From a virus (lineage: Duplodnaviria > Caudoviricetes): a stretch of 64,000 nucleotides of DNA. The notes under the pieces were generated by a model. The model was not told the origin of the DNA. It worked only from the letters and a program-made list of their open reading frames with translations, and did not search any database. Within the stretch, counting starts at the first letter, position 1. Each line of letters opens with the position of its first letter. Both the position numbers and the translations under genes were made by a program. The stretch spans positions 1,780 through 65,779 of IMG/VR virus record IMGVR_UViG_3300014656_003390. One strand, written 5' to 3'. Below are positions 2,447 through 41,738 of the stretch, piece after piece.

Positions 2447-2678
2447 AGAAGATTATAAAGAATATCTGTGTTCAGAAGATTGGCAAGAAAGAAGAAAATT
2501 GTTAATGGAAGAAACAGATTGGACATGTTGTGAGTGTGGTGCAAAAGCAACGCAACTTCATCATTTGAGTTATGAGAATTTAGGTGAAGAGGAATTAGAT
2601 ATAGATGTTGTTGCATTGTGCAGTCATTGTCATAAAGAAATTCATCATAAGGATGAGGATGATTATGGCGAATGGTAG
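2433..2678 (+). CDS. Small HNH endonuclease (possible packaging-associated, HK97 gp74-like)
   Basis: CCECG...QLHHLSY...VALCSHCH; directly upstream of TerL; ATG at 2433. Confidence 0.75.
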   Translation: MYLNKEDYKEYLCSEDWQERRKLLMEETDWTCCECGAKATQLHHLSYENLGEEELDIDVVALCSHCHKEIHHKDEDDYGEW

Positions 2679-4002
2679 AGAAGTATTAATGGAATTATCT
2701 GTCGAAGATTTCTATGACCCAGTTGGGTTTCAAGTTGCTTATTTGAATCAGATACCACATAAGAAACAGATTGAGGTTTTAAGAAGTAAGAATAAAAATA
2801 AAATTGTTGTTTGTGGCAGAAGAAGTGGAAAGAGTCAGATGATTGCTGGTGAATTAATAAGAGGAGGAGTTTTACAATTATTTCCAAAACAAATTCTTAT
2901 AACACCACAATATAAGCAATGTATGATTATTTTTGATAAGATTGTTGAACTCACTGCTAAGTCTAAAACAGATTGTGATATAGAAAAAGTTATTCATTCT
3001 CCTTATCCTAAAATTATTTGGAAGAACGGCAGTTTTATTGATTTTGCTTCTGCTGATAATCCAAATAGTTTGAGAGGAGATGCTTATGATAGAGTGTTTA
3101 AAGATGAAAGTGCTTTTATTAAAAAAGGAGCAGATAATGCTATTAAACCTTTGACTTATGATAAAGGTGCACCAGTTTGGGAAACAACAACTCCTTGGGG
3201 AAAAGGTGATGTTTGGGAAAAATGGGATAGAGGAAAGAAAGGTGATGAAGATTATGGTTGTTTTCATTATAATTATAAAGATAATCCTTATTTGAATGCA
3301 GAAGGAGTAGCAGAGATTGAAAAGGATATAATTGAATATGGAGAAGATAGTTTATATGTTCAGTGTGAAATATATGGTAACTTTGTAGAGGATAGAGATT
3401 GTTATTTTAGTAGAGAGTTAGTTGAAAGTTGTACTGAAGAATATAATATTCCTGAAGAACCAAATATAAGATACGATTATGGATTGGGTAATGATATTGC
3501 AGGAGAAGGTGAAGATGAAAGTGTTTTTATAAGTGTTTTGAGTTGTGGTGGCAAATACAGAGTGGTTAGTATTGATAACTATGAGAAGAATAAACCAAGA
3601 GAAGTTGTTGGTAAAGATATAGAGTTATATCAGAAATATAAGTTTATTAAAATATGTCTTGATAAAACAGGAATGGGTGATGGACCTACAGATTGGTTAA
3701 AAGAAGAGTTAGATAAGATTGGAGTTTGTGGAGATAGTATAGTTGAAGGAATTAGATTTACAATTCAAAGCAAAATGGATATGTATAGTAATTTAAAGAA
3801 AATTATGGGACAGGGAAAATTGAAGATACCTAAACATAAGAAATTGGTTTATCAGCTTTTAGATTTAAGATATGAGATTATGAGTAATGGTGGAATAAAG
3901 ATACATCATAGTGCCAATAAACACGATGATTATCCTGATGCATTAGCATTGGCATGTTGGGCATGTAAAGATGAAGATAATTATTGTCCAATGTTAGGAT
4001 AA
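2665..4002 (+). CDS. terL: Terminase large subunit
   Basis: Walker A CGRRSGKS, Walker B VFKDESAF, TTPWG coupling motif, RNase H-like C-terminus HDDYPDALALA. Confidence 0.95.
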   Translation: MANGREVLMELSVEDFYDPVGFQVAYLNQIPHKKQIEVLRSKNKNKIVVCGRRSGKSQMIAGELIRGGVLQLFPKQILITPQYKQCMIIFDKIVELTAKSKTDCDIEKVIHSPYPKIIWKNGSFIDFASADNPNSLRGDAYDRVFKDESAFIKKGADNAIKPLTYDKGAPVWETTTPWGKGDVWEKWDRGKKGDEDYGCFHYNYKDNPYLNAEGVAEIEKDIIEYGEDSLYVQCEIYGNFVEDRDCYFSRELVESCTEEYNIPEEPNIRYDYGLGNDIAGEGEDESVFISVLSCGGKYRVVSIDNYEKNKPREVVGKDIELYQKYKFIKICLDKTGMGDGPTDWLKEELDKIGVCGDSIVEGIRFTIQSKMDMYSNLKKIMGQGKLKIPKHKKLVYQLLDLRYEIMSNGGIKIHHSANKHDDYPDALALACWACKDEDNYCPMLG

Positions 4003-4146: not shown

Positions 4147-7047
4147 ATGATTAAACTTCCTTGGAGCAAAAGAGTGAATGAGAATAGTAGTATTGTAAAT
4201 TTTGATTATAAACCTACAATATCTAATGATATTAAAGAATTTGTTGATAGTATATCTGAAAAGTTTAAAGGTGCTGTAGAGAAAAAAGATGTTAAATTTC
4301 CTAATGAATTAGGTGAAGAACATCCATTTGATTTTAAGCAGATGGAAGAGTTATGTAAGAGATGTGGATTGTATGGTGCTGTTCTTGATAAGTATAATGA
4401 TTTTATTTGGGGGTCTGGTTTTTATATAACTTGTGAAGATGAGAGAGCAAAAACAATTATTGAAGATTTTATAGAAGATGTTGATTTACCTACATGTGGA
4501 AGAGCTTGGACTAAAGAAGCATTGAATAAAGGAAGTGGATTCTTAGAACTTGGTGGAAGTATGAAAGAGGGAATTAAAGGAGTTAAGGTTCTGAATGCTA
4601 ATAATATGTATGTAAAACGAACTGATACTGGCGACATTCTTGGTTATAATCAGTATGTTGGGGGATTTAAGAATTTTAATATGGATAAACTTGTTAGAGA
4701 TAAAAAAGTTATTCCATTTGATAATGAACAAATTGCACATTTAGCATTTAATATTATTGGGGATTGTGCATATGGTTTAGGTCTTGGATATCCTGCAATG
4801 AGAGATATGGATAATTTATTAACGAATGAAAATGATATGCATAAGATTTATCATAGAAAAGCAAATAGTCCTCTTCATGCAAAATTGGGATATGTCGATG
4901 GTAATACTAAGATATTACCAAAAGAAAGCGATGTAATAAATTATGGTCAGAAGATGGAAATTATGGATAATAGAACTAATTGGGCAACAGATGCTCTTGT
5001 TGAATTGAAAGTTGTTGATTTTGGAAACATTGGAGATAAATTTAGCGTAGTTCTTGAACATGATATGCAGAAATTACTTTATGACTTTCAGATACCACCA
5101 GAATTGATGGGAATGGCTAATATTCCAGAAGGATTAGCTCGTGTTCGTATGGAAGCATTTCAAAAAAGAATACAATCAATGCAAAGTGAAATAGAAAAGA
5201 TTATAGAACAAAAAATATTTCGTCGTGTATTAATGGCTAATGGATTAGATGTTCATGTAGAATTTGAATGGGGGACACCATCAATTCTTGAAGTAGAAGG
5301 AAGATTAAAATTAATTACTGATATGATTAAGTCTCCAACTGTATCTATGCCAATGAGAGAGATATTAGAAGACGAATTAATAAATCAGCTAAAATTAGAT
5401 AAAGATACTTGGGAACAATTAAAAACGAAAGATGAAGAAGCAAGAGCAAGAGAAGAACAAAGAGCACAACCATTAGTGCCAGGACAGAATAAAGGATTTC
5501 CACAAAAGCCAATATCTAAAGCAGAACAACCTAAACAATCATCACCAAAAGAAATATTAGATGGATTTATAGAAGTATTGATGAAGCAAGAAGAAAAAAG
5601 GAATGAGCAGTGGATTAAGCAACAAGAAATTGATAAAAATAATTTAATTAAGAGAAAGGAAACAGATAATGAACTTATGAAATCTATGATAACTCAAATG
5701 ATGCAAGTTGCACAAGAAAAAGAAATAAAGATTAGAGAAGAGCAAAAAATAGATAGTATTAGTGGTACTAATAGTGAAAAGAAAAAGCAGAATAAAGTAA
5801 GAAGAATATTTAATAAGAAGAATGGGGTGTTGAAGAACGGGTTATTGCCTAAATTTAAGATAACAAGAAAGACAGAGTCTGTTAAAAATATTGATAGATT
5901 AAATAATGATATGCATAATGATATGAATAATGATATGAATAATGATATTAAAGTAATTGAAAATATTGAGAAGGTAGTTAAAAAAGAGAAAGAAGTAAAG
6001 TATATTAATAAAAACTATGAGCATATGAAAGAGTGTAAACATTGTCAAGAGAATTGGGATAATGTAAATGATATTGAAGAATGGTTAGGGTTTAAATATA
6101 AGGATTATATAAATCAAATTTTGAGCAAAGTAAAAAGTTATGATTTTAATCAAATTAAAGCAACGACAGAAGCAGAGAGAGTAGCTGGGTATTTATCTGA
6201 TAAACAAATTGATGAATTAAGAGCAATATTAGAAAATGGATTTAAGAAAGGTTTGAGTATGAAAGATATGGCAAAGGATATTGATAAGAAACTTGAATTA
6301 AAAGATTTATATCGAATGAATGAAGAAGGAGATATAAAGAAAGGTGCAAGTGGATTGCCAATATTACAGAAGACAAAAGAAAACAGAAGTATTGGAATTG
6401 TAAGAAGTGAAGTAACAAGGTTAGCTAATCAAGGAGCAGTTGAATACTATAAGGAAAATGGTATTAGTAAAATAAAATGGGTTGCATCATTCGGTGATAG
6501 AACATGTCCAGAGTGTGAAGCATTGAATGGACAGATATATGATATTGGTGAACAAGAAGAAATGCCTTTGCATCCGATGTGTAGATGCACTTATAGTCCA
6601 GTTGTGGATTTATATGGAGCAAAAGTAAAAGGACCTTCCGAAGAAATTGAATGGAAATCAGAAATGGTTGAGAGCGATGCAAATAAATTTATAAAAAACA
6701 GTGTTATAAAAGAAGATTTATATCATGGTTCAACACCTGAAAACATCAAAAATATAAAAAAATTAGGATTTAATGATGCTAATAAAGCTGGAACTTATTT
6801 ATCTAATTCAAAAAAATATAGTGAAACATATATTAAAGACAGAGGAGTTGGAGAAATTATTAAAGTAAAAGTAAATGCAAAAAAAGTTTATGATTTAACA
6901 TCTAATGATAAATCATGGCCAGATATAATAAAATTAAAAAAAGAAGGATATGAAGCATTAAAATATGAAGGTGCAACACTAGATTCTGGAGAAAAAGTAA
7001 TGTTTTATCAAATATTTAATAAAAAATCAATGGTGGTAATAAAATGA
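4147..7047 (+). CDS. Portal protein fused to MuF (SPP1 gp7-like) domain and a C-terminal ART-like domain
   Basis: Portal-like N-terminus after TerL; MuF motifs IVRSEVTR, DRTCPEC, PLHPMCRC; C-terminal LYHGS...GTYLS...GYEAL. Confidence 0.8.
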   Translation: MIKLPWSKRVNENSSIVNFDYKPTISNDIKEFVDSISEKFKGAVEKKDVKFPNELGEEHPFDFKQMEELCKRCGLYGAVLDKYNDFIWGSGFYITCEDERAKTIIEDFIEDVDLPTCGRAWTKEALNKGSGFLELGGSMKEGIKGVKVLNANNMYVKRTDTGDILGYNQYVGGFKNFNMDKLVRDKKVIPFDNEQIAHLAFNIIGDCAYGLGLGYPAMRDMDNLLTNENDMHKIYHRKANSPLHAKLGYVDGNTKILPKESDVINYGQKMEIMDNRTNWATDALVELKVVDFGNIGDKFSVVLEHDMQKLLYDFQIPPELMGMANIPEGLARVRMEAFQKRIQSMQSEIEKIIEQKIFRRVLMANGLDVHVEFEWGTPSILEVEGRLKLITDMIKSPTVSMPMREILEDELINQLKLDKDTWEQLKTKDEEARAREEQRAQPLVPGQNKGFPQKPISKAEQPKQSSPKEILDGFIEVLMKQEEKRNEQWIKQQEIDKNNLIKRKETDNELMKSMITQMMQVAQEKEIKIREEQKIDSISGTNSEKKKQNKVRRIFNKKNGVLKNGLLPKFKITRKTESVKNIDRLNNDMHNDMNNDMNNDIKVIENIEKVVKKEKEVKYINKNYEHMKECKHCQENWDNVNDIEEWLGFKYKDYINQILSKVKSYDFNQIKATTEAERVAGYLSDKQIDELRAILENGFKKGLSMKDMAKDIDKKLELKDLYRMNEEGDIKKGASGLPILQKTKENRSIGIVRSEVTRLANQGAVEYYKENGISKIKWVASFGDRTCPECEALNGQIYDIGEQEEMPLHPMCRCTYSPVVDLYGAKVKGPSEEIEWKSEMVESDANKFIKNSVIKEDLYHGSTPENIKNIKKLGFNDANKAGTYLSNSKKYSETYIKDRGVGEIIKVKVNAKKVYDLTSNDKSWPDIIKLKKEGYEALKYEGATLDSGEKVMFYQIFNKKSMVVIK

Positions 7048-7205
7048 CAATAATGTTTGATTTAATTTGTAAAGATTTTAAAATAAATAAAGAAGATAAA
7101 GAAATATTATTAAAAATGATATTAGATATAAATAATATTAATGAAATTATTTTTAAAATTACATTTTATTTTAATGAATTAAAAAATAAAGTGGAGATTA
7201 AATAA
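7044..7205 (+). CDS. Small protein (53 aa) translationally coupled to the portal-MuF-ART gene
   Basis: ATGA overlap at 7044-7047; MTIMFDLICKDF...KVEIK; not in the supplied track. Confidence 0.5.
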   Translation: MTIMFDLICKDFKINKEDKEILLKMILDINNINEIIFKITFYFNELKNKVEIK

Positions 7206-7448
7206 ATGGTAAATAAAATAATTGATAGAACAGGACATACTTGTATAGATTTAGAAAATTTACTAAAGGATGAAAGAGAAGTTATAGAAGGACATATAGA
7301 CGAACACAAATGGTTTCACCACATTTCAAATAAAGAAGATGGGATAAAAGATTTTATTCAAGAGTATGGATGGATTATGAAAGAGATGTATTGTAAGTAT
7401 GTGTGTAAGAATAAATGTTTATATGAATATAAAGGAGAAAGCAAATGA
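7206..7448 (+). CDS. Hypothetical protein
   Basis: Tightly packed ORF; HIDEHKWF motif. Confidence 0.65.
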   Translation: MVNKIIDRTGHTCIDLENLLKDEREVIEGHIDEHKWFHHISNKEDGIKDFIQEYGWIMKEMYCKYVCKNKCLYEYKGESK

Positions 7449-7594
7449 ATATACCAAAATGTGCAGTTAAGAATTGTGAAGGAAATGGGTTTGTATTGTA
7501 TGGCAGTAATTGGATATGTGGAGATTGTATGTTAAAGATTATGAATAAGGAGACAGAAAAGAAAAATAAAATGGTGGAGGATTTAGAGATATGA
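7445..7594 (+). CDS. Small Zn-finger protein (49 aa)
   Basis: MNIPKCAVKNC...WICGDC; ATGA overlaps at both ends. Confidence 0.6.
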   Translation: MNIPKCAVKNCEGNGFVLYGSNWICGDCMLKIMNKETEKKNKMVEDLEI

Positions 7595-7926
7595 CAATTC
7601 ATTACTGCCCACATTGTAATAAAAGGTATATAGTTAGTTTTGATACTACTGATTATATTCATGAATGCAATTCAGGAAACTTGACATTAGACCAAGACGA
7701 TGTAGTTATTGTTGGTAATTGGGAAGATAGTGATGGAAGTAGTGGAGTTAGGCATCCTCAAGAAGTTATGAGAGCAGGAATGGTTAATGAATTGCAAGGA
7801 AGAAGACCACAAATTGAAGAAGGTAAAGATAAAGAAGCAATAACAAGAAGAGGAGTAAGAGCAAGTACAAGGAGACAAACACAGCATAGTGAATTTATTA
7901 ATTTGAAAAAAGGAGGGCTAGATTAA
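7591..7926 (+). CDS. Hypothetical protein with N-terminal Zn-ribbon
   Basis: HYCPHC...IHEC. Confidence 0.7.
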   Translation: MTIHYCPHCNKRYIVSFDTTDYIHECNSGNLTLDQDDVVIVGNWEDSDGSSGVRHPQEVMRAGMVNELQGRRPQIEEGKDKEAITRRGVRASTRRQTQHSEFINLKKGGLD

Positions 7927-8655: not shown

Positions 8656-9771
8656 ATGCCAGAAGTAATTATATCAGCAAGTGGACCACAATATGGATTA
8701 GTTATAAATCCAGATGGAAGTATTAATGCTAATGTTAGTGGAGTAGATATTAGTATTGGTAGTTTAGCATTAAGTCTAGAGAATATTTATATAACAAGTG
8801 GTAATAATTTGCATTTAGGTAGTGCTTGGACAAATATTGGAAGTGTATTGATATCAAATGATTTAGGTTCAACAGCATATATTATAGGAAGCGTAGCAAT
8901 TACAAATATGGGTTCTATATTATTTGGTGGTGGAGTTGGTTCTGTTATGATATCAGGAACATCACAACCAGTGTGGAGAGGAATAGGTTCAGTAATGATT
9001 GGAGCAGGAGTAGGAAGTGTAGTAATTTCAGGTACATCAATACCTCCATTTAGAGGGATTGGTTCTGTTTATATTACAAATTCTTATTTAGGAAGCGAGA
9101 CTTATGTAACTATTTTAAGTGGAACACAATATGCCGACATTATGAATAGAGTTGCAGGTTCTATTGTAAATATGCCAATTGTTGGAGTTAGTGGACAAGT
9201 TGGAATTAGTGGTATCATAGGAGCAACAGTTGGTTCTGTAGCATTATATGATTTAGGGTCTACTGCATGGGTTGTTGGTAGTGTTGCTATAACGAATATT
9301 GGTTCATTTTATTTTGCAGGTGGAACAGGAAGTGTTATGATTTCTGGAACGAGTATTCCTGTATGGAGAGGAATCGGAAGTGTATTACCTACAGGAATTG
9401 GTAGTGTATATGTTGTCGATATAAATAATGATAATGGAATTGTAGATGTTGGTTCACCAAGTTTTAAGAGAGGATTATTAACAGCAAGTGGAACTTATAT
9501 TAATGTTTGGCCAATAGATGGTGTTGGTAGTCGATTAGAGATGCATGGATTTCATATATCAACTAATAGTGCTGGATATGTTAGTCTTTGTAGAAGTGGA
9601 ACTATTCCTGTTGTTATTAGTGATTGGAATTTGAATTATACTTCTGGAGCAACAATAGAAAAGACTTTTGTAAATCCTATTATACCTAATGGAGCTAATG
9701 TTCCTGTCGGTATTGGTGCAACAATTGCTGGAAGCACTATTTGTACTATTTATGGTAGAGAGGTGAAATAA
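8656..9771 (+). CDS. Virion structural protein with Gly/Ser-rich internal repeats
   Basis: Repeated GSVMISGTSxPVWRGIGSV units; beta-strand-rich. Confidence 0.65.
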   Translation: MPEVIISASGPQYGLVINPDGSINANVSGVDISIGSLALSLENIYITSGNNLHLGSAWTNIGSVLISNDLGSTAYIIGSVAITNMGSILFGGGVGSVMISGTSQPVWRGIGSVMIGAGVGSVVISGTSIPPFRGIGSVYITNSYLGSETYVTILSGTQYADIMNRVAGSIVNMPIVGVSGQVGISGIIGATVGSVALYDLGSTAWVVGSVAITNIGSFYFAGGTGSVMISGTSIPVWRGIGSVLPTGIGSVYVVDINNDNGIVDVGSPSFKRGLLTASGTYINVWPIDGVGSRLEMHGFHISTNSAGYVSLCRSGTIPVVISDWNLNYTSGATIEKTFVNPIIPNGANVPVGIGATIAGSTICTIYGREVK

Positions 9772-10484
9772 TGGTATTGACTGATGGTCTATTATCATAT
9801 TGGCCACTTGAAGATAATGCTGCTTCAACTACAGTTACAAGAAGTGCTGGTTCTCAAAATGGAACAGCATCACAGAATACAAATTTATTTAGTTCACAAG
9901 GAAAAATAAATAATGGATTTTATTTTCCTGGAAGTAATACAGGAATGTCTGGAACGAGATGTTATATTGGTTTACCTAGTAATGTATTGGGTAGTTCTAC
10001 AGAATTTACCGTGTCATCTTGGGCAAATACACAAGATTATGCTTATAATAATAATATTTTAGCTGCTTCTTTTAACTATGCTAATAATAAAGGGCTTATA
10101 ATAAGAGGTCCAAGAAGCACAGGATTTGAATTTTTTCTTGGGAAGTCAAGTTATGTTTTAACAAGTTTTATTGCATCTAATGATATATGGTATCATTATA
10201 TACTTACGCATTCAGGAGCATTATCTACTCTTTATGTTAATGGTGCATTCCAAGAAAGTAAAGCAACAAAAACAATTTCTGCAAGTGCAAGTTATAGTTC
10301 AATTGGAAACGAATATACGAGTTGGTTTAAAGGGTGGATAGATGAAGTAGGATTTTGGAATAGAGCATTATCAGGAACAGAAATAACAGAACTTTATAAC
10401 AATGGCAGAGGATTAACATATCCATTTATTAAAAATTCAGTAAGAGTTGGTGGAGCAGTTATGGAGGCATATTATGGACATTAG
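9771..10484 (+). CDS. LamG/concanavalin-A-like lectin domain virion protein
   Basis: GLLSYWPLED, GKINNGFYF, WYHYILT, LYVNG, GWIDEVGFWNRALSGTEITELYN. Confidence 0.85.
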   Translation: MVLTDGLLSYWPLEDNAASTTVTRSAGSQNGTASQNTNLFSSQGKINNGFYFPGSNTGMSGTRCYIGLPSNVLGSSTEFTVSSWANTQDYAYNNNILAASFNYANNKGLIIRGPRSTGFEFFLGKSSYVLTSFIASNDIWYHYILTHSGALSTLYVNGAFQESKATKTISASASYSSIGNEYTSWFKGWIDEVGFWNRALSGTEITELYNNGRGLTYPFIKNSVRVGGAVMEAYYGH

Positions 10485-11781: not shown

Positions 11782-12999
11782 ATGCCAACGGAATTTGATA
11801 AAATGGTGAATGCAATTAAACAATCACTTAGAAAAGCAAATCCCAAAATGAAGGAAGAGGATATTACTTCTAAGGCATATGCAATGGCAACAGCGTCGTG
11901 GAAAAAAAGTCATGGTGGGAAAGCACCAAGTGAAATGTTAAATAATTTAAATAATTTAGATAATGTAGATAATTTAGATAGTGTAGATAGTTTGAGTGAA
12001 AGGTTAAACGATTGGAGAGTTCTTGAGTTTTTTGTTCCTATTGAAGAAAAAGTATTTGATAAAGATACTGATGAATTTTTAATTAGAGGAGTTGCAATTA
12101 ATGAAACAACTACTTTGAATAATGTTAAGTATGTTGCACAAGAATTAGAGAAAGCATCAAGTTCTTTTAGAAATGTTCCTATTTTGTTAGACCATAAAAA
12201 CGAAATTAAAAATATTGTTGGTAGAACAACTAATAATGTAAATTTTAATTCAGCAAATAGAAGAATTGATTTTGAAGGTAAAATTATGGACAAAACAATT
12301 CGTGAAATGATTAAAGATGGTAGAATACAGAATGTTAGTATTGGTGCAAAAGTTGATGACTTAGTAGAAGAAACCGATGGAAGTAAAAAAGCTGTTGGTA
12401 TTAGAGGATTAGAAATTAGTTTAGTTGCTGTTCCTGGAGACAATCAAGCAAATTTAGCACAAGCAATTAACCATAATTTTCATTTAAAGGAAATGGCTAA
12501 TATTAATGCTAATAGATACAGTAAGCATATTGAACATACTGAAATTAGCAATGAGGAGATGTTAAAATTAGCACAAAATATAATTGATGAGTTTGATAAA
12601 AAAGAGAGTATAGATAATAGTTCTTCAGAACAAGTAAGTAAATTAAATTTAAAAGAGGACAACATGGCAGAAGATACAGCAGTAAAAGATATTGTTGATA
12701 GTCCTAAACAAGTTGAAAATCCTGAGCAGACAGAACAAAAATCTGAAAGTGTAAATACACAAAACCAGATTGATGAACTAAAGTCACTTATTATTTCTTC
12801 TTTTTCTGAAATGAAAAAAATACAAGAAAGTAAGAAAGAAGAAAAAGTTAATGAGACAAAAGGTATTGTATCAACAGAGAAAGTTGAAGCAAGTGAAAAC
12901 TCAAACGACTTTATTGTTGAAAGTGCTGAAAATGGAAAAGGATTTTCTTTGTATAGTGATTATAGCAAAAACTCTAAATTAAAAAGATTAAGCAGGTAG
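11782..12999 (+). CDS. Prohead maturation protease with C-terminal scaffold-like region
   Basis: PILLDH and VSIG / EISLVAVPGD motifs of HK97-type proteases; acidic tail. Confidence 0.85.
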   Translation: MPTEFDKMVNAIKQSLRKANPKMKEEDITSKAYAMATASWKKSHGGKAPSEMLNNLNNLDNVDNLDSVDSLSERLNDWRVLEFFVPIEEKVFDKDTDEFLIRGVAINETTTLNNVKYVAQELEKASSSFRNVPILLDHKNEIKNIVGRTTNNVNFNSANRRIDFEGKIMDKTIREMIKDGRIQNVSIGAKVDDLVEETDGSKKAVGIRGLEISLVAVPGDNQANLAQAINHNFHLKEMANINANRYSKHIEHTEISNEEMLKLAQNIIDEFDKKESIDNSSSEQVSKLNLKEDNMAEDTAVKDIVDSPKQVENPEQTEQKSESVNTQNQIDELKSLIISSFSEMKKIQESKKEEKVNETKGIVSTEKVEASENSNDFIVESAENGKGFSLYSDYSKNSKLKRLSR

Positions 13000-20925: not shown

Positions 20926-23130
20926 ATGGTAGTAGAAATACAAATAACAATATCGGGAGTTACAATTATTCCTGATACATGTAAAATAAAAAAATCAATC
21001 GGAGATATAGATACAATAAGTTCAATCAGTATTGGCATAAACAATTATACTGGTGCATATTCAACCGATTATACTATTGGTAATGAGATAAAGGCATATG
21101 TAAGTGGTATCAATGTTTTTACTGGGATACTTACTGATATTTCTCTTAAAGGAAAGGATTTAAAAGAAGATTTAACACTGACAGGTAGAGATTATTCATA
21201 TCAATTTTTAGATAGAACTGTTGAACCAGAAACTTATAGTAATCTTCCTGCTGGAAGTATTGTTAAGGATATAATTGAAAAATACACAATAGGGATTACA
21301 ACAACAAATGTAAGTGACGGAGATACAATCATTAAAAGAACATTTAATCAAATTCCAGTTTTCGATGCTATAAAACAACTAGCAGAAGATACTGCATTTA
21401 GTTTTTATGTTGATGAAAATAAAGATTTACACTTTGGAGATTTAAATTCTACATCATCTGGATACACATTTGGTTCTGGTATTGGTTCTGGTAATATTTT
21501 GAATGCAAGTTTTAGAGAAAGTAGAGATGGAATTTATAATGAAGTTTGGGTTTATGGAGATAGGTACCTTGACGGATTTAAAGAAACAATTGCTACTCCA
21601 GCAGGTGGAGGAAGTATATTTACTTTACTTTATAAACCACGTAATGTTGCTATAACAGTAAGTGGTGGTATTATACAGCCAGGAGGAATTTTTAATATGA
21701 CACCTGGTAGTGAAGTTAAATTTTTAGTTGATTATGATAGCAAACAAATTATATTTACATCTGGAACAACTCAAGGATATAATATTCCTTCTGAAGGTAA
21801 TTCCTGTGTATTTGATTATATGAGAGATTTACCTGTTATAAAGATGGGGCAAAATCATGATAGTGTAGAAAAATATAAAAAAAGAGTTAAAATAGTAGTA
21901 GATAAGAATATAAAAGATGCAGATACAGCAGAATTAGTTATGCTTTCTACACTTGAACAGTATTCAGACCCATTAAAGCAAGGAACATTAGTATTAAAAG
22001 ATATCTATAATTTAACTCCTGGAGAAAATTGTAATGTTAATATTCCGATATATGGAATTAATAATAATGAATACCAAATGACTGAAGTTGATTATAATTT
22101 ATCACAAGACAACCTTTTAAGAGGAACTATTATGACTGTTAAATTAAATAAAAATTTACCAGATATAACTGATAATCTAAAGGATATTCTTTTACAATTA
22201 AAGAAAATTCAAGGTGGTGATATATCAAATGCAGATTTAATAACTCGATTTCAATTAATAACAGGTAGTTTCGGTATAAGACAAAGTGGGTGTTCAATTT
22301 ATACAATTCCAATTAATGATAGTTTTATAGCAGGACATTCACAAAATAGTGTATTAGGAGTTGTTAATCCTTCTACAGTTGGAAGTTTGATTAGTGGTGT
22401 GAGTTGGGTAAGTGGAATTATGGGAACAGGATATGATAAAGCATGTAGTTTTAATGGAACCAATGGACAAATTAAAATAAATAATACTGGAATTTGGAGT
22501 AATGGTAGTTATACTATTTCTTTATGGACTTATCCTTATGTAATGACTACTGCTGCAGGAATTGGAAGAAGATTTTATTCAGAATGTAATAGTACTTTAA
22601 CTCCCCCTTTATTTTCTATAGAACAAACAGCTTCAATTATTGGTTCTAATGTAGAAGTAGTTATAAGAAATGATAATAATGATGTATATGTCTCTACTAT
22701 ATCCAACTCAGATATAAAAATAAATAATTGGTATAATATTATTCTTACAGAAAATGCAGGAAGTATTAATTTATATATAAATGGAAATTTAGATAAAACA
22801 ATTAATTATACTCATAGTGGAACATTAACAACAGATAGGATAGGCATCGGTGCAGTAGTTAGAAATTCTCCTGTAGGATTTGCATCCGGAATAATAGATG
22901 ATGTAAGAATTTATAATTATGCTCTCTCAGGAACAGAAATAGGAAGTTTATATTCAAAAGTAAATTATCCATTAAACGGATTAGTAGCATGGTATAAATT
23001 TGATGAAGGAATGGGTTCATTTGCTTATAATTCAGTTGGTTCAGGAAATACATCAGGCAATTATATTCAACCTTTTCTTGGAGATAGAAGAGGAAGTTCA
23101 GAATTAGTATATTCAGGAGGTTATTTTTAA
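20926..23130 (+). CDS. Tail tip/hub protein with C-terminal LamG domain
   Basis: After TMP; WYNIILT...LYINGNL...IDDVRIYNYALS, GLVAWYKFDEG. Confidence 0.75.
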   Translation: MVVEIQITISGVTIIPDTCKIKKSIGDIDTISSISIGINNYTGAYSTDYTIGNEIKAYVSGINVFTGILTDISLKGKDLKEDLTLTGRDYSYQFLDRTVEPETYSNLPAGSIVKDIIEKYTIGITTTNVSDGDTIIKRTFNQIPVFDAIKQLAEDTAFSFYVDENKDLHFGDLNSTSSGYTFGSGIGSGNILNASFRESRDGIYNEVWVYGDRYLDGFKETIATPAGGGSIFTLLYKPRNVAITVSGGIIQPGGIFNMTPGSEVKFLVDYDSKQIIFTSGTTQGYNIPSEGNSCVFDYMRDLPVIKMGQNHDSVEKYKKRVKIVVDKNIKDADTAELVMLSTLEQYSDPLKQGTLVLKDIYNLTPGENCNVNIPIYGINNNEYQMTEVDYNLSQDNLLRGTIMTVKLNKNLPDITDNLKDILLQLKKIQGGDISNADLITRFQLITGSFGIRQSGCSIYTIPINDSFIAGHSQNSVLGVVNPSTVGSLISGVSWVSGIMGTGYDKACSFNGTNGQIKINNTGIWSNGSYTISLWTYPYVMTTAAGIGRRFYSECNSTLTPPLFSIEQTASIIGSNVEVVIRNDNNDVYVSTISNSDIKINNWYNIILTENAGSINLYINGNLDKTINYTHSGTLTTDRIGIGAVVRNSPVGFASGIIDDVRIYNYALSGTEIGSLYSKVNYPLNGLVAWYKFDEGMGSFAYNSVGSGNTSGNYIQPFLGDRRGSSELVYSGGYF

Positions 23131-25101: not shown

Positions 25102-25779
25102 ATGAATTGGATTAAAGAAATAGCAAAGATAGTTCTAAAAGAAGAAATTAAAATATTGGAAAGCCAAATTCCAAAGAAAAATTTTTATCAAGAATATTAT
25201 AATAATAAATATCCGAAAACTGATATTTTCTATAAAAGAACAGATAAACTTGGGACGATTAATATTGATGTTAGACAATTCTTAAATTTTAATAATTGTC
25301 TCTTTCCGAAAATAAATGGAGAAAATGATAATGAAAAAGTAATTAATTCATTAATATGGGTTATAGATAATATAAAATATATTCCTGATAAAACAGAATA
25401 TGGACTAGAAGAATATTGGGCATATGGATATGAAACTTTTAATTATAAAAAAGGTGATTGTGAAGATGGAGCAATATTACTTTATGATATTATGAGAGCA
25501 AATGGAATACCTGCTTGGAAATTAAGAATTAATGCTGGTTTAGTTAATAATCCTTTGAATCAGAAAGTAGGACATTGTTTTGTTGTATATTATAATGAAG
25601 AAACAAATAAATGGCAATTATTAGATTGGTGTTATTATCCATCAAAACTAGGTTTAGAATTTAGAGACGAATATAAAAATGAAGCAAATTATATAACTAC
25701 TTGGTTTAGTTTTAATGAAAATTTTTCTTATAATAAAGATATAAAAGATATTCCTAAAATGGAAAATATAACTAATTGA
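25102..25779 (+). CDS. Transglutaminase-like cysteine protease
   Basis: GDCEDGAIL (Cys), GHCF (His), LLDW (Asp) triad. Confidence 0.85.
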   Translation: MNWIKEIAKIVLKEEIKILESQIPKKNFYQEYYNNKYPKTDIFYKRTDKLGTINIDVRQFLNFNNCLFPKINGENDNEKVINSLIWVIDNIKYIPDKTEYGLEEYWAYGYETFNYKKGDCEDGAILLYDIMRANGIPAWKLRINAGLVNNPLNQKVGHCFVVYYNEETNKWQLLDWCYYPSKLGLEFRDEYKNEANYITTWFSFNENFSYNKDIKDIPKMENITN

Positions 25780-27898: not shown

Positions 27899-28738
27899 TC
27901 ATTTGAATTGCTTCCTATAAGTTTCTAAAAAGTCTCCTTTTTCTTTATATATTTTTTGACAAAATCTACTTAACAAATCATGATTAGTTTGTAATCCATT
28001 TTGATATTGTTGTGTTCTTTCGCCCCCACTTGGAGTTGCTAAATGATAAGCAATAGCTCCTGTATTAATTCCAATTTTAAATCCTTCGAGAATTGCTCTA
28101 AAACTAAACCATTGTTCTTCTCTAAAACTACAAAAGCCAATATTATCTTCATATTTAACTTTTTGATGAACTTCCTTTTTAATTAATGCCATACTTCTAA
28201 AATTTACACTTGGTATAATTTCTTTTTCTATATACTCCATTCCACATTCATCACCAAAATATATTATCTCTCCTTTATCATTTAATCGAACATCACTTAT
28301 GAATGGTTTAACATACTTCGTTGAGCGTTTTATAAATGGTATTGCACAATGAGGAACTAAACAACCTGCAATATCATATCCTTGGTCTAATGTATCACAT
28401 AGTCTTTCAAGAAAGTCTGGTTGTAAAAGATTATCATCATCTAATCTTAAAATACAATCCCCATTCCCGACTTCTATTATTCTATCAACTATTATTTGTC
28501 TCAATCTTGTAACTCCATAAGCTATATCATTTCTCCAAATAGTAACACAGTGGTTTTCAAGTTTCAGTCTATTTACTATTGCTTGAATGAAGTTAAAATT
28601 TTGTATTGAAACACCACTTCGGTCATCCATAATATATAAATCCCAATCTTTATGAGTTTGTGTTCTTAAACTCTGAAGTAATAAAGCAACTTCGCTTGGT
28701 CTATCCTTTGTACATAACATGATATCTATTTTATGCAT
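27899..28738 (-). CDS. GT-A (GT2) glycosyltransferase
   Basis: MLCTKDRP, IMDD, LRLDDD. Confidence 0.85.
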   Translation of the reverse strand: MHKIDIMLCTKDRPSEVALLLQSLRTQTHKDWDLYIMDDRSGVSIQNFNFIQAIVNRLKLENHCVTIWRNDIAYGVTRLRQIIVDRIIEVGNGDCILRLDDDNLLQPDFLERLCDTLDQGYDIAGCLVPHCAIPFIKRSTKYVKPFISDVRLNDKGEIIYFGDECGMEYIEKEIIPSVNFRSMALIKKEVHQKVKYEDNIGFCSFREEQWFSFRAILEGFKIGINTGAIAYHLATPSGGERTQQYQNGLQTNHDLLSRFCQKIYKEKGDFLETYRKQFK

Positions 28739-30030
28739 ATTTTTCTTCTAACCTCTTTATCAATTTCTTCTCTTAGTCTTTTTAAATTTTTATTACTTAA
28801 TTCATTCGTCCTAACATTACTACAATCTTGTTTGTCAAATCCTCTATAAAAACTATCTTCAGTTGCATATCTTGGCTTATTAAAATATAAACCATTATAC
28901 TCCCATTTATAATCTTTAAACTTTTTGGATGGAATAGCATTATCATATATCTTACTACCAGGGTATGGAGTTATTAAATTAAAATCAAAATCATTTGGTT
29001 TATTTTTTAAAAGCCAATCTTTTGACATCATAATATCTTCAAAAGTTTCATCTGGAAACCCAAGCATCATAAATGCTTCATAATGTATTCCTGCATCTTT
29101 TATAAGTTTGCATGCTTTTGAATTTTCTTCACTTGTTGTTCTTTTATTTATATTTTTCAACATTCTATCAGACCCACTCTCAATACCTGTACAAAGTTTT
29201 ACAAACCCAGCATCTTTTAACCATTGAACGCTTTCAGGATATTTACAAATCATATCGCTTCTAACAAACCCTCTATGTTGATATTTTCTTTTTGACAACA
29301 ACTTACACAATTCTTTTAGTCTTTTGATATTAATATTAATCTCATCATCATACCACATAAAACTTTCATATCCATACTTTTTATTTAATTCATCTAATTC
29401 TTCTAAAATTCTTGTTGGAGAGTGTGTTCTTGTTTTATTATACATTTCAATATCTCTCCCACAACAAAAAGTGCATTGAAATGGACATCCTCTTTGTGTC
29501 ATAATACATGTTGTATCTTTTCCTAGAAGACTATAATGATAACTTTTAATATCTATGAAATCTCTATTTGGTATTGGGACATCATCTAAATTTTTGATAA
29601 GATTACCTTTTTGCCATCCAGATTTAAACATATTACTTGTTTCTTCTCCTTCACCAGCAAATATAGTATCAAACACTTCTAAATCTTTTATATTGATATC
29701 TTCTATACCTTTTTCTCGTAATGAATATAAAGCACTTGAATGTGCACCACCAATCATAGTTTTTGCCTTTGGATTATATTGCTTTAATATATTAAATATC
29801 TTCATTATATAAGGGAATTGTGGAGTGGTAGAACTAAACCCAAACCATTCGTAATTATTGGTATAAGGAATTATATCTTCTGCTTTTTTTCCTGTTAAAT
29901 CAATAACATCTACCAATTTTCCTTCATTTCGTAGTTGAGTTGCCACTCTTAATATACCTATATTTGGAAATGTTTTTTCATTAATTAAAAACGGACTATT
30001 TGAAATTATTAATGCTATATCTTTTTTCAT
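28726..30030 (-). CDS. B12-binding radical SAM protein
   Basis: IGGAH; TQRGCPFQCTFC (CX3CX2C); GIESGS. Confidence 0.9.
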   Translation of the reverse strand: MKKDIALIISNSPFLINEKTFPNIGILRVATQLRNEGKLVDVIDLTGKKAEDIIPYTNNYEWFGFSSTTPQFPYIMKIFNILKQYNPKAKTMIGGAHSSALYSLREKGIEDINIKDLEVFDTIFAGEGEETSNMFKSGWQKGNLIKNLDDVPIPNRDFIDIKSYHYSLLGKDTTCIMTQRGCPFQCTFCCGRDIEMYNKTRTHSPTRILEELDELNKKYGYESFMWYDDEININIKRLKELCKLLSKRKYQHRGFVRSDMICKYPESVQWLKDAGFVKLCTGIESGSDRMLKNINKRTTSEENSKACKLIKDAGIHYEAFMMLGFPDETFEDIMMSKDWLLKNKPNDFDFNLITPYPGSKIYDNAIPSKKFKDYKWEYNGLYFNKPRYATEDSFYRGFDKQDCSNVRTNELSNKNLKRLREEIDKEVRRKICIK

Positions 30031-33735: not shown

Positions 33736-34418
33736 ATTTTATATTCTCCCACTTTCCATTTCTCTCTCATAAGTCTATAAGCCTCTTTTTTTAATTCTTC
33801 AATATTTGCAACCTTTTCATGTTGATGTCCTTTAATATAATCCGGCATATGGTCTACCCAGTAATCAACTTGATAAACTTCTAATCCTAATTGTTTAATC
33901 GCATAAGTATAATCTATATCCACTCCCCATCCTATTGGATACCTCTCATCATATCCTCCTAATTTTTCAATAGTTCTGTAAGGAATATAAGTACACCAAG
34001 CACCAACCCAATAAAATCCATTTATGAAATCGGAACCAGAATAATTACCTCCACCATAAGAAGTTATAATTCCGCAATCTATTCTTTCTTGTGCTAATCC
34101 TTTCATATGCATTAACCAATCTCTTCCTAAACATTTTGGAAAGATAACATCAGTTTGTGTAAGGAATAAATCTTCTTTTCTTTCTTTTGCTATCTGGAAT
34201 AATCTATTGTATGCCTTTAATGGACCTTCTTTTGGAGTATGTATTACTTCAACAAAGTCATAAAACTTTGCTAATTCATCACAAAATTCTGCACTACCAT
34301 CTATACTTCCACTTTCAAGAAGTATTATTTTATCTCTAACCATTGTTGAATTTATAAAACTATAAAAACAATATTTTAATCCTTGTAAGTTATTATAAAT
34401 TGGAATACCTATTATCAT
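33732..34418 (-). CDS. GT-A (GT2-like) glycosyltransferase
   Basis: IGIPIYNN, LLESGSIDGS, GGYDE, GVDIDY. Confidence 0.8.
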   Translation of the reverse strand: MIIGIPIYNNLQGLKYCFYSFINSTMVRDKIILLESGSIDGSAEFCDELAKFYDFVEVIHTPKEGPLKAYNRLFQIAKERKEDLFLTQTDVIFPKCLGRDWLMHMKGLAQERIDCGIITSYGGGNYSGSDFINGFYWVGAWCTYIPYRTIEKLGGYDERYPIGWGVDIDYTYAIKQLGLEVYQVDYWVDHMPDYIKGHQHEKVANIEELKKEAYRLMREKWKVGEYKI

Positions 34419-35689
34419 TTATTAGCACCTCTTTGTCTCAAGAACTCTTGTAACTCTAACATATTATTCATAATCTGTTTTCTTGTTAACCCTTTCCCTT
34501 CTTCATATTCATATGGAACAGCATCTTCAGGATTATCTTTGCTATCCTTAAACCTACAAACTAAATGATTCATTTTTCCCCAATCTTTACTTACCCATTT
34601 TATTCCATATTTTTCAGGAGTGTTATAAATAGGACTTCCTGGATATGGTTGAAGTGAAGACAATAAAACTAAATCAGGATTAATTTTATTAACAAATTCT
34701 TTTGTCTCTCTAACAATATCTATTGTCTCTCCAGGTAACCCATTAAGTAAATATATCCTTGTTTTTATATCATACTTTTTACAAAGAGCCATCATTGTTG
34801 ATGCATCGTCTATATTAATTTTCTTATCAGCAATTTCTAAAACCTTTTTGTTAACACTTTCAATACCAAAACTTAATTCAACTAATCCACTTTCTTTTGC
34901 TAATTTCAATATGTCTTCGTCTGTATTTAACCTTATCTGTCCTCTCCATTTTATATCTTTACTCTTGATTAAGTTTAGCCAATCTACTGCTTCTGTTTTA
35001 TTTAAAGGGATACATATTTCATCTTGAAGTGATAATCCTTTTACTCCATATTCTTTTTTTAGATAATCAATCTCATCTGATATTTTTTGTAATGAATTTC
35101 TTTTAATTGCTCCTCTTTGATAATTTGCACAAAAATTACAACCAAACGGACAACCAAAACTAAATTGTGCTGTTGTTGATGTCATTTCGTCTGTTTTAAA
35201 TAAATGTTCATTAATTATATGTTTTTTTGGAAGGAAGTGTCTTTTAGGAAAAGGATACTCACATATTGGTTTTTCTGATATAATATTTACATATCTTTCT
35301 TTTATATTAGGATAATCTTTTAATATTTGTTCTAATGCTCCTTCTCCTCTACCAATAACAATACTATCAAATCCTCTTGTTATGTCTGGAAGTATAGTAG
35401 GATGAGGACCACCTGCAATATGCTTTGAATTAGGATATATTATTTTTAAATCTTCTGCAATCATTTGACACTCAATTAAATCTGGACTTGCTATTGTATA
35501 AAAATATAAATCTGCTTCCTTTGGTATTAACTTTTTATTCTTTTCATCTCTAAAATCAGTAAAACTAACTTCACATCCTTTCTCTTCAAGTATTGTCGCA
35601 AGATATAATTGTGTTAATGGTTGTGCTCTTAAAGGTTCAGCCCAGTAGTGCCAAGTTGGTATAATAAAGTTTATAGAAAGTTTAGACAT
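34415..35689 (-). CDS. B12-binding radical SAM protein (second copy)
   Basis: AGGPHPT; FGCPFGCNFC; FGIES. Confidence 0.9.
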   Translation of the reverse strand: MSKLSINFIIPTWHYWAEPLRAQPLTQLYLATILEEKGCEVSFTDFRDEKNKKLIPKEADLYFYTIASPDLIECQMIAEDLKIIYPNSKHIAGGPHPTILPDITRGFDSIVIGRGEGALEQILKDYPNIKERYVNIISEKPICEYPFPKRHFLPKKHIINEHLFKTDEMTSTTAQFSFGCPFGCNFCANYQRGAIKRNSLQKISDEIDYLKKEYGVKGLSLQDEICIPLNKTEAVDWLNLIKSKDIKWRGQIRLNTDEDILKLAKESGLVELSFGIESVNKKVLEIADKKINIDDASTMMALCKKYDIKTRIYLLNGLPGETIDIVRETKEFVNKINPDLVLLSSLQPYPGSPIYNTPEKYGIKWVSKDWGKMNHLVCRFKDSKDNPEDAVPYEYEEGKGLTRKQIMNNMLELQEFLRQRGANK

Positions 35690-40187: not shown

Positions 40188-40473
40188 TTTCTTTTTTCCA
40201 TACTTGTTTTACTTTTTTTACTAAATCTGTATCCCTTGAGTTATGCCATATATCTTTTGGAAAATATTTTCTTGTATCTATAACTTTGTCTGCCCATTTT
40301 CTAAGTATATCCATTGTTTCTTTTGTAGAATATTTTTCTCCAATAGCTATTGCTTCATATTTTATAACTAAATTTGGGTCATTTGTTCTTCCATTCAAAC
40401 CTTTTATAAATTGTGCCAGAGCTACACTTCTTATATTTCCCCCATCACATATACATAATACTTTTGTTGTCAT
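40177..40473 (-). CDS. Small LMW-PTP-like phosphatase
   Basis: VLCICDGGNIRS = CX5R(S) P-loop. Confidence 0.7.
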   Translation of the reverse strand: MTTKVLCICDGGNIRSVALAQFIKGLNGRTNDPNLVIKYEAIAIGEKYSTKETMDILRKWADKVIDTRKYFPKDIWHNSRDTDLVKKVKQVWKKENEN

Positions 40474-41738
40474 TTCTTTTCTCCTATCAACAACTGATTT
40501 GAAAATAACCAATCCTGTGGTACATCTTTAACTAATATTCCATAACTACTTATTTTATCTATCCACCATTGTTTATCATGAAATTGTTTATGAGTGCTAT
40601 CTGCTTCTAAGTTTGGGTCTCCTTCAAATGGTATTGAGAATAAAAAATTATCACTATATGAAAGAATATTTTTTAATGCTTTGTCAAGTTGTTCATCTGT
40701 TAAATGTTCCAATATATCTATACATAAACAAACTTTATATTTCCATTTGTTCTTATTTTTTATTTTTGTAATATCTCCTTCACAAACATCCATTACTCCA
40801 CTATTAGTTCTAAAGGCATTATCAACTGCAAATTTACTAATATCAAATCCTAAATAATCATAATCATAACTAGCAATTGCAAACCCGAACGGTGCTCGTC
40901 CACAACCAAATTCTACAAAATTACATTCTCTATCATTATTATCAAAATAATTTATCCATTGTTTTGCCATAAGAAAATGTTTAACTTCTAATCCTCTATT
41001 AGCAAAATAAAATTCATCTTTATTAATTTCATATCTATCACAAATTTGTTTTGGTAATTCAACAGGATTAATTTGTTTAGTTGGATATAAACCAAGCAAA
41101 TGAGCCATCTTCCATTGTTTCAAGAAGTCCTGATTATGAATAATGCTATCCGATGCATGTTGTTTATATCTTTTTAAAATATAATCCATATATTCTACAG
41201 GCAAATGTCCAAGATGCCAAATAGTAGTATCTAAACAAGCACCTTTTAATTCTCCTTCTAATACTGGATGACTATGAAGTGGATATCCTTTTGCTTCTGA
41301 TATTTTAAATAACCTTCCTGGAACAACATGCACAGGACGAGTGTTATCTTCATGCCCTAAATCTCCAATGAAGTGTCTCATCTTAACATTATAAATTCCA
41401 GGTTCTCTTTCTGATATGAATTTCTTTATTTTTTCAATTCCTTCTTCTTCTAATATTTCATCTTCGTCTAAAACCAAACACCAATCATTAGGATAAGCTT
41501 GTTTTAAATAATCTAAATATTTCTGTCTACATTTTCCATTTGTTGCCATATCATTATCATCCCAGCCATTATAATGAACTTCTTGATTGTCTGGTAAATG
41601 TTTTAAGCACGGACTTATTGAAAAGCTATAATCGCTTGTAAAATATAAAATTTTATCTGCATCTTTTACACTATCAAAACACATATCAAGAAAATGTTGT
41701 TTTCCAGGTCCCATGATAACTATTACCAATTTATTCAT
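40470..41738 (-). CDS. Glycosyltransferase-methyltransferase fusion
   Basis: N-terminal LVLDEDE (DxD) and IWHLGH; C-terminal EFGCGR, GFDIS, IDILEHL. Confidence 0.85.
   Translation of the reverse strand: MNKLVIVIMGPGKQHFLDMCFDSVKDADKILYFTSDYSFSISPCLKHLPDNQEVHYNGWDDNDMATNGKCRQKYLDYLKQAYPNDWCLVLDEDEILEEEGIEKIKKFISEREPGIYNVKMRHFIGDLGHEDNTRPVHVVPGRLFKISEAKGYPLHSHPVLEGELKGACLDTTIWHLGHLPVEYMDYILKRYKQHASDSIIHNQDFLKQWKMAHLLGLYPTKQINPVELPKQICDRYEINKDEFYFANRGLEVKHFLMAKQWINYFDNNDRECNFVEFGCGRAPFGFAIASYDYDYLGFDISKFAVDNAFRTNSGVMDVCEGDITKIKNKNKWKYKVCLCIDILEHLTDEQLDKALKNILSYSDNFLFSIPFEGDPNLEADSTHKQFHDKQWWIDKISSYGILVKDVPQDWLFSNQLLIGEKK

Follow-up and report, generated by a model that had tools for sequence, protein, structure and literature searches.

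The 64,000-nucleotide stretch of DNA analyzed here (positions 1,780 to 65,779 of the IMG/VR record IMGVR_UViG_3300014656_003390; hereafter, the window, with all coordinates counted from its first nucleotide) encodes, on the plus strand at 4147..7047, a protein of 966 amino acids (aa) in which a portal, a long linker and a MuF domain are followed by a C-terminal tail domain with the fold of ADP-ribosyltransferases (ARTs). The window represents nearly all of a linear 65,779-bp record (28% G+C; ~46% complete by CheckV estimate) and comes from an uncultured groundwater virus of a low-GC lineage within Caudoviricetes. The gene is one uninterrupted frame of 966 codons, as had been claimed in an earlier note made from the DNA sequence, and in DNA with 28% G+C an open frame of this length is impossible by chance. 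The triple architecture proposed in the same note was recovered as well: the portal, MuF and ART parts were each identified independently, by profile and/or by fold. We consider it likely that this is a genuine gene in which an ART cassette was inserted, in this virus alone, behind the portal and the MuF minor head protein, which form a single chain throughout the lineage, and that the tail is an effector packaged in the virion.

The C-terminal tail is an ADP-ribosyltransferase-fold domain

The tail (aa 836-966; 6652..7044, plus strand) is an ART-fold domain of the H-Y-[EDQ] clade that is related, as judged from both profiles and structure, to the ART-PolyVal family and to PARPs. The earlier note had placed this domain at approximately 6690-7047; the end is right, being the natural C-terminus of the family (7044), but the start lies farther upstream, around W836 (nucleotide (nt) 6652). 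The three motifs on which the ART assignment had originally been based are all present, namely, YHGS (aa 859-862), GTYLS (aa 882-886) and GYEAL (aa 934-938).

A phmmer search with aa 825-966 as the query against 1.84 billion representative proteins (threshold E <= 1e-3) yielded 20 matches, the best of which was P0114 (E 5e-11). Most of the tail homologues that were scanned have ART-PolyVal and/or PARP matches in Pfam: P0114 reaches 99 bits on ART-PolyVal, and P0129, P0124, P0127, P0131 and P0118 also score above the ART-PolyVal/PARP cut-offs. The domain order of P0114 (1226 aa) is unusual, with at least two ART-PolyVal domains, an intein splicing domain and a MuF domain at the C-terminus. Another candidate, P0115, which contributed 12 'stretches' to the phmmer matches, was discarded as low-complexity noise.

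When a profile constructed from the tail and ten small homologues was compared with the Protein Data Bank (PDB), the only proteins retrieved were PARP catalytic domains, with PARP10 as the best match (E 6e-6), followed by PARP14, PARP1, PARP3, PARP15, PARP12, PARP16 and tankyrases; the motifs LYHG(T/S)...GF...GxG(I/V)Y(F/L) are aligned with those of the PARPs. A Gig2 protein is also among the matches of the tail family profile. A protein search with the tail profile by word index gave 4 matches in each of two modes, such an index being poor for a divergent family.

Structural comparison points in the same direction. The AlphaFold2 (AF2) model of the tail, built from a 20-sequence alignment, has a predicted local distance difference test (pLDDT) value of 92 and a predicted template modeling (pTM) score of 0.84. 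The PDB matches listed by Foldseek are all ART domains of PARPs, namely, PARP1 and PARP4 (best E 3.5e-5), and a VIA-align comparison with 48,161 chains returned tankyrase-2 (Z 8.5), PARP2 (8.3), PARP1 (8.1), diphtheria toxin (8.0) and exotoxin A (7.7). These Z scores are merely middling, so that the argument rests on the homogeneity of the match list: the ~35 best rows are almost all ART-superfamily proteins. The PARP-fold pseudo-enzymes PARP13 and TASOR are also found among the VIA-align fold matches. The phmmer matches, the confident model, the structure lists made up of ART-like proteins and the PARP profile matches bear out, at a level far above chance, the ART fold that had been predicted for the tail.

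Structure matches in BFVD include a MuF fusion protein from a Microbacterium phage (E 2.7e-9, query template modeling score (TMq) 0.76), protein 100L of iridovirus IIV-6, which is PARP-like, and numerous ART-PolyVal proteins. The kinship with ART-PolyVal and MuF-toxin domains that the earlier note had suggested is likewise supported. The top BFVD match, A0A3Q9RA76 of Microbacterium phage Schubert, is annotated as 'capsid maturation protease and MuF-like fusion protein', and PHROG 595 and 115 match aa 492-930 of the window protein, with PHROG 595 ('head maturation protease') covering the MuF domain and the tail; the 'protease' half of such fusion annotations may really be an ART-like domain. 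Furthermore, the ART model aligns with PDB 9k3a_B (a cyanopodovirus ejection protein from the pre-ejectosome of cyanophage A4) over 99 residues with 23% identity and Z 7.0; on this match, a structurally characterized ejected protein would contain an ART-like domain.

In tblastn searches, MuF matches extend past aa 822 in Streptococcus phage EJ-1, in cyanophages and in Stenotrophomonas/Xanthomonas phages. We rejected EJ-1 and the other cultured-phage MuF proteins as MuF-ART fusions: the tail of EJ-1 ORF41 is dissimilar to that of the window protein and has only a weak DUF7874 match.

Portal, linker and MuF domains

The N-terminal portal domain (aa ~51-440; 4297..5466, plus strand) was detected with PHROG 9232 (aa 59-370, E 1.8e-20); no Pfam portal family matches the window protein itself, but its relatives carry precomputed matches to the portal families PF04860, PF05133 or PF06074. 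The whole 966-aa protein has no phmmer match among PDB sequences. In the full-length AF2 model (alignment of 18 relatives; mean pLDDT 66.5), the pLDDT of the portal domain (aa 51-440) is 60-90, and Foldseek comparison of this region with solved portals identified that of the archaeal Haloferax tailed virus 1 (HFTV1) as the closest fold match (E 9.4e-13, target template modeling score (TMt) 0.63), followed by the portals of T4, 812, lambda and G20c; the top Foldseek matches of this domain are portal proteins without exception. The position of the gene directly after that for the large terminase subunit agrees with the portal assignment.

The linker (5545..6054, plus strand), delineated from the AF2 model and amino acid composition, begins as a single 67-residue helix (aa 467-533) and continues as a disordered tether (aa 531-636) of ~100 K/E/N-rich residues that are unstructured and modeled with low confidence. 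A 12-nt tandem repeat with 3.9 copies (5902-5948) encodes NDM(H/N) units in this disordered part. Among the relatives, which range from 609 to 1236 aa, the linker is the region that varies most in length. In P0009 (L011:2256-5966, 1236 aa), the ATP-grasp/GARS-type domains PF02843 and PF01071 are located between the portal and the MuF domain, and PF28159 occupies the same position in P0040 (904 aa); given the ATP-grasp/GARS-type domains of P0009, the linker is a second insertion site for enzymatic cargo.

The MuF domain (SPP1 gp7-like; aa ~640-820; 6064..6606, plus strand; AF2 pLDDT 77-93) matches PF04233 over aa 691-816 with 44.2 bits against a cut-off of 29.6, and the corresponding nt 6217-6594 agree with the initial placement of this domain at ~6190-6600. 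It ends with the motif HPMCRC (H809), which is invariant as HPxCRC in the relatives. Between this domain and the tail lies a flexible junction (aa 821-835, extending to ~838 in the AF2 model; 6607..6651, plus strand; pLDDT < 50).

The fusion is genuine

The same protein (957-966 aa) is encoded in a 65.8-kb contig of the Joint Genome Institute (JGI) assembly and in a 47.4-kb contig of the European Nucleotide Archive (ENA) assembly. At least part of the stretch is present in six groundwater sequencing runs from four studies, with four of the runs holding half or more of the sampled words. In run X4, which comes from another study, a contig (record 27) spans 6525-6691 with 0 differences and bridges the end of the MuF domain and the start of the tail; contig cover is missing for parts of 6690-6910 in the four runs compared.

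The same in-frame junction, with a 10-20-aa linker leading from HPxCRC to W-K...LYHG, recurs in other proteins, and the end of the tail is the exact end of its homologues. P0116 belongs to the same portal lineage (32% identity) and has the same in-frame tail; P0117 combines a different portal family (PF04860) with MuF and the tail; P0121 consists of a portal and the tail, without MuF; and P0130 (2137 aa) contains Phage_portal, an Acb1-like/2H phosphoesterase of the type directed against the cyclic oligonucleotide-based antiphage signaling system (CBASS), MuF, an ADPrib_exo_Tox ART and a PARP-like ART. The two assemblies, the bridging contig from another study and the presence of the same tail in other portals settle in favor of a genuine fusion the possibility of an assembly error that had been raised when the gene was first noticed.

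Recent gain of the tail and the accompanying small gene

The homologue search with the window protein returned 112 proteins, nearly all of them portal-MuF fusions. About 100 of these stop 6-11 residues (mostly 9) past HPxCRC and a few have tails of 21-26 residues; the window protein, with 152 residues past this motif, is alone among the 112 homologues. Where the relatives terminate at the junction with '...ELK' and a stop codon, the window protein reads on, and none of 22 related IMG/VR loci contains tail coding sequence.

In the relatives, the portal-MuF stop is followed by a zinc-ribbon gene (often overlapping) and then by a conserved gene for a 110-aa CxxC protein. The slot between the portal-MuF and CxxC genes is a variable cargo hotspot, 0.15-1.7 kb in length, in which other cargo is found in some relatives. 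This cargo, located between portal-MuF and the zinc-ribbon gene (L003:2768-3469, L011:5967-7427 and L022:7871-9031), includes proteins of 233-486 aa that begin with MAQIQGS... and an 'IYKNLY' open reading frame (ORF) of 54-79 aa. In the window, the slot contains, all on the plus strand, the tail; ORF53 (7044..7205), which begins within the stop codon of the 966-aa ORF (ATGA); and ORF80 (7206..7448), which is virus-specific and without a known family. These are followed by the gene for the conserved small zinc-ribbon protein (7445..7594) and, at the far edge, by the gene for the conserved CxxC protein (7591..7926; here 111 aa, with tblastn matches in 15 relatives). Locus comparison and G+C content delineate an 855-bp insert relative to the short-form relatives (6588..7442, plus strand) that comprises the tail, ORF53 and ORF80; its G+C content is 23% vs 30-34% in the flanks, with ORF53 at 11%. 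In run X4, there is also a contig joint 6587->7443, with 25 nt in between that correspond to '...TLSPVTELK' and a stop codon; at depth 2 and with a short flank, this joint looks, albeit weakly, like a co-occurring short-form relative.

By sequence comparison, the cassette is a recent gain that was inserted in frame at the extreme C-terminus of the portal-MuF protein. Eight relatives in the lineage of P0117 also lack the tail; its gain is a repeated event.

The only other readable tailed locus is L024, in which the ORF located directly behind the tail (5844-5996) likewise has the ATGA overlap. ORF53 and this L024 ORF50 show 40% identity over 43 aa (E 3e-6), the sole match of ORF53 among 31 loci, so that the small ORF occurs in both readable tailed loci and is absent from the approximately 29 loci without a tail. 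Given this homology at the same position, the ART domain and the ~50-aa ORF travel together. By analogy with other toxin-associated small genes, ORF53 may be a candidate partner, regulator or immunity protein of the tail. Neither ORF53 nor ORF80 has any significant match in Pfam or usable matches in the ESM Atlas, and a complex prediction for the tail and ORF53 (score 0.02, 'no answer') speaks neither for nor against binding.

Active site of the tail

H860 is invariant in the family (20/20 members), and 17 of the 20 have Tyr at the position of Y884, with the same count for Y895; the three residues align with the LYHGT and GKGVYF motifs of PARP10 and correspond to the NAD+-binding residues of PARPs. 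For the register of the catalytic Glu, we used E988 of PARP1, which lies in the motif NEYIVYD. The equivalent position in the tail is F953 (alignment of the MFYQIFN motif), with M952 one register earlier; the same F953 register is obtained from the end of the gap-free VIA alignment, where model residue 142 corresponds to PARP1 residue 1001. Among the relatives, E is found at the catalytic position in 4/20, and D or N one residue earlier in 9/20.

The Glu of GYEAL (E936), which the earlier note had counted toward the match to the ART fold, is therefore not aligned with the catalytic Glu, the place of which is taken by F953. The E936 site, one strand earlier, is Asp in 17 of the 20 members and Glu in 2, and this 'G-Y-D' site resembles the Y-D-S motif of the mono-ART PARPs; E936, as a conserved site, or the nearby E949 could substitute for the missing acid. 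In the ARTs of polyvalent proteins, the active site consists of H (strand 1), Y (strand 2) and D (strand 5) (PMC5512222). The H and Y of this ART-PolyVal pattern are present in the tail, and the conserved acidic site of the family lies on the strand before that of PARP-E988. In these alignments, the site is of the H-Y-Phi type (Phi, a hydrophobic residue), as in PARP10-type mono-ARTs, which is compatible with NAD+ binding and leaves enzymatic activity uncertain.

Proposed role of the tail and alternatives

The C-terminal (crown) end of a portal faces the capsid interior. The 966-aa ORF is the sole portal-like gene of the 65.8-kb record, so that, barring processing of the chain, each portal subunit would be joined to MuF and the tail through a long, flexible tether, and the head of a particle would enclose as many as twelve MuF-ART arms on tethers of ~200 residues. 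By analogy with known head-borne effectors, a domain that modifies the host is probably brought into the virion by the fusion. With MuF toxins, polyvalent proteins and T4 Alt as models, the tail would most likely be a virion-packaged effector that acts at or just after genome entry. Delivery at DNA ejection and a role against host defence, both envisaged in the earlier note, would follow from the same analogy. It might bind NAD+ via the retained His and both Tyr residues and either mono-ADP-ribosylate a host target, as H-Y-Phi PARPs do, or work through NAD/ADP-ribose binding; in the producing cell, ORF53 may regulate or neutralize the tail.

Several observations weigh against this interpretation. 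A domain tied to the portal stays in the capsid unless it is cleaved off, and neither a cleavage site nor a clear prohead protease was identified, the only candidate being a weak PHROG match at 11782-12999. No ADP-ribose hydrolase (Macro, ARH or NADAR) and no tyrosine integrase were found in the 65.8-kb record, absences that mean little given that the record is ~46% complete. Strand 5 of the tail lacks the catalytic Glu, Asp or Gln, with M952-F953 there, and without this acid the tail may be inactive. The match of the tail to ART-PolyVal (PF18760), with 20.1 bits when the full 966 aa are searched and 25.8 bits (E 2e-5) when the tail is taken by itself, remains below the cut-off of 31.2 and spans just positions 9-90 of the 140 positions of the profile, and the tail has no PARP match in Pfam; because its homologues score above the cut-offs, the tail is, by sequence, a divergent relative of ART-PolyVal that is not filed as a member. 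Finally, a single nucleotide is missing at 6974 in one run X4 contig (depth 2), which would shift the frame of the last ~24 residues and thereby remove the final strands of the domain; this is either an error or a minor truncated variant.

The missing acid raises the alternative that the tail is a catalytically dead ART fold that remains attached to the portal and functions as an NAD/ADP-ribose or nucleic-acid binder or has a purely structural role or one inside the head. PARP10, which is the tail's best sequence match in the PDB, and other H-Y-Phi PARPs are active mono-ARTs; moreover, the NAD-contacting residues H860, G861, Y884 and Y895 as well as the acidic site E936 are retained, and the cassette is accompanied by a conserved small ORF, as in toxin-immunity pairs. 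A dead domain thus appears somewhat unlikely to us, although it would account for F953/M952 in place of the strand-5 acid and for the covalent tie to the portal with no release mechanism found, and precedents exist both in the pseudo-enzymes PARP13 and TASOR among the fold matches and in inactive MuF-borne effectors, such as the PBECR domain of phage Mu gp30 (PMC5512222).

Alternatively, the protein could be a classical MuF polymorphic toxin involved in host-cell competition or in lysis-lysogeny control, with ORF53, and perhaps ORF80, as the immunity protein. The layout, with MuF preceding an optional C-terminal enzyme domain and tightly coupled small ORFs behind it, is the same as in Bxa and Apk2 (PMC11699363), and the tracking of the tail by ORF53 across tailed and tailless loci is in line with such a pair. 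However, the C-terminus in this lineage is either absent or an ART (the tail is found in 1 of >100 proteins), with no alternative toxin domains seen there; integrase was not found, while MuF toxins have been reported only from temperate phages (PMC5576092); and the active site lacks the usual acid. On balance, this is an unlikely explanation.

It is also conceivable, if quite unlikely, that the tail, instead of being an injected effector, acts late in infection and during assembly, either in the producing cell or on the virus's own components (portal, terminase, packaged DNA or head proteins). The protein is made together with the late structural gene products and held at the packaging vertex, and the idea that head-linked ARTs counter immunity directed against the packaging apparatus has been put forward by Iyer et al. 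(PMC9503650), but the >100 relatives assemble without a tail, so that the domain is dispensable for morphogenesis.

That a sequencing or assembly error erased the portal-MuF stop codon and joined a separate downstream ART gene is very unlikely, even though the close relatives all have a stop at that point and the public runs cover the stretch thinly and unevenly, considering the identical protein in two assemblies, the contig from another study that crosses the junction without a difference, the in-frame junction with a 10-20-aa linker in three other lineages and, on inspection by eye, the absence of a plausible start with a ribosome-binding site just before W836.

Relationship to known systems

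The closest published parallels to the proposed packaged effector include MuF toxins, 14% of which are ARTs, including the EFV toxin, and which have been reported only in temperate phages (PMC5576092). The MuF-ART toxins, namely, the EFV toxin of the Enterococcus faecalis V583 prophage, Bxa of a Bacteroides stercoris phage and the MuF-VIP2 proteins of the Microbacterium phages Percival/Goodman, likewise consist of MuF and a C-terminal ART encoded beside the portal and terminase genes (PMC5576092, PMC11699363, PMC7302621), and share with the window gene the small ORFs behind it and the sporadic occurrence among similar phages. In the case of Bxa, two adjacent small immunity ORFs have been described (PMC11699363). 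The ARTs of the EFV, Bxa and MuF-VIP2 proteins are of the Alt/VIP2 type and belong to the R-S-E clade, whereas the window tail is PARP-like, of the H-Y-Phi type; MuF in these phages is a separate protein present in few copies, as opposed to a part of the portal chain in the window; the phages encoding MuF toxins are mostly temperate, whereas no integrase was seen in the window record; and the activity of Bxa and EFV has been demonstrated, whereas that of the window tail is uncertain.

ART-PolyVal (PF18760; the Tox-ART-HYD2 clade of Iyer et al. 2017), the best Pfam match of the tail, shares with it the His of strand 1, the Tyr of strand 2 and the phage-head-associated context (PMC5512222). The strand-5 Asp of this family is not evident in the tail (M952/F953), and the window tail is part of a short three-part protein as opposed to a giant polyvalent one. 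With the mono-ART PARPs (PARP10, PARP14, PARP15, PARP12 and PARP16) and fish Gig2, the tail has in common the LYHG(T/S), GxG(I/V)Y(F/L) and Y-D-like motifs and the hydrophobic residue at the position of the catalytic Glu; compared with these PARPs, it is a minimal 130-aa core of viral origin, with ~15-20% identity and without the PARP regulatory/acceptor loops. Phage T4 Alt has a capsid-targeting sequence and is cleaved by the prohead protease. This ART, which travels inside the head and enters the cell together with the DNA, is the functional model for head-borne ARTs (PMC5512222); it is a separate protein of the R-S-E clade, and no homology to the window tail was found.

Portal-MuF fusions as such are known from Microbacterium phages of clusters EA3/5/8 and EB, where the 'portal and MuF-like fusion protein' is one polypeptide, as in the window (PMC7302621). 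Effectors, namely, a PBECR RNase and a 2H phosphoesterase, have been found fused to MuF and portal domains (PMC5512222), and ARTs to head or portal proteins (PMC9503650). Whereas the published portal/MuF effectors are PBECR and 2H (PMC5512222), the effector in the window is an ART, in a lineage without a close cultured relative. The claim that a portal carrying a toxin is unusual thus stands in part: the tail is unique among the >100 relatives of the window protein itself, but effector and ART fusions had been published (PMC5512222, PMC9503650), and three portal-ART proteins as well as the 2137-aa P0130 are added to them here. Portal-MuF, MuF-ART and portal/MuF-effector fusions are each on record, and earlier papers also mention ARTs joined to head or portal proteins; what this locus adds is a clear example of a recently gained portal-MuF-ART fusion in an uncultured groundwater lineage, its minimal H-Y-Phe PARP-like domain and the co-traveling small ORF.

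Gene neighborhood and host

Directly upstream of the 966-aa ORF are the genes for an HNH endonuclease and for the terminase large subunit (TerL; 2605..4002, plus strand; PHROG 2, E 4.8e-40; Pfam Terminase_6C and Terminase_6N above the cut-off). The HNH endonuclease gene (1874-2446) is located immediately 5' of the large terminase gene, the usual HNH-terminase packaging pair. Elsewhere in the window, two structural-module proteins (9771-10484 and 20926-23130) contain Laminin_G_3 (concanavalin-like lectin) domains, and a transglutaminase-core cysteine protease-like protein, encoded at 25102-25779, closes the late operon and occupies the position of a lysis gene. The minus strand (28726-30030, 34415-35689 and 40470-43755) encodes two B12-binding radical SAM enzymes, a methyltransferase and a glycosyltransferase.

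This virus has no close relative among cultured phages, in which only the MuF part finds matches. The best full-length genome matches are contigs binned with two metagenome-assembled genomes (MAGs) of Woesearchaeota and one of Paceibacterota, and the virus encodes a bacterial-type DnaE and a protein with a weak PriL-like match. A bacterial host, initially considered on account of the DnaE-type polymerase, was withdrawn as an assignment after the Woesearchaeota and Paceibacterota MAG matches were obtained; DPANN archaea or bacteria of the candidate phyla radiation (CPR) are suggested as hosts.

Implications

The finding amounts to a natural experiment: among >100 relatives with the portal-MuF architecture, one virus captured an in-frame ART cassette, and other portal lineages, at least two or three of them, have done the same. 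Without revealing a new principle, this pattern lends support to the idea that effectors, whether injected or packaged, generally dock at the head end of the portal/MuF module. With a PARP-like domain of only 130 aa and a 53-aa ORF, the system is also experimentally tractable.

In a more far-reaching scenario, which we regard as improbable, the virus would infect DPANN archaea (Woesearchaeota-like), up to twelve tethered H-Y-Phi enzymes would be released at ejection to mono-ADP-ribosylate a host protein or nucleic-acid end, and ORF53 would found a family of ~50-aa ART inhibitors; if true, this would be the first head-delivered ADP-ribosylating effector with an antidote in an archaeal virus. 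More generally, a host among the DPANN archaea or the CPR bacteria would extend head-borne NAD+-based warfare to poorly known host groups.

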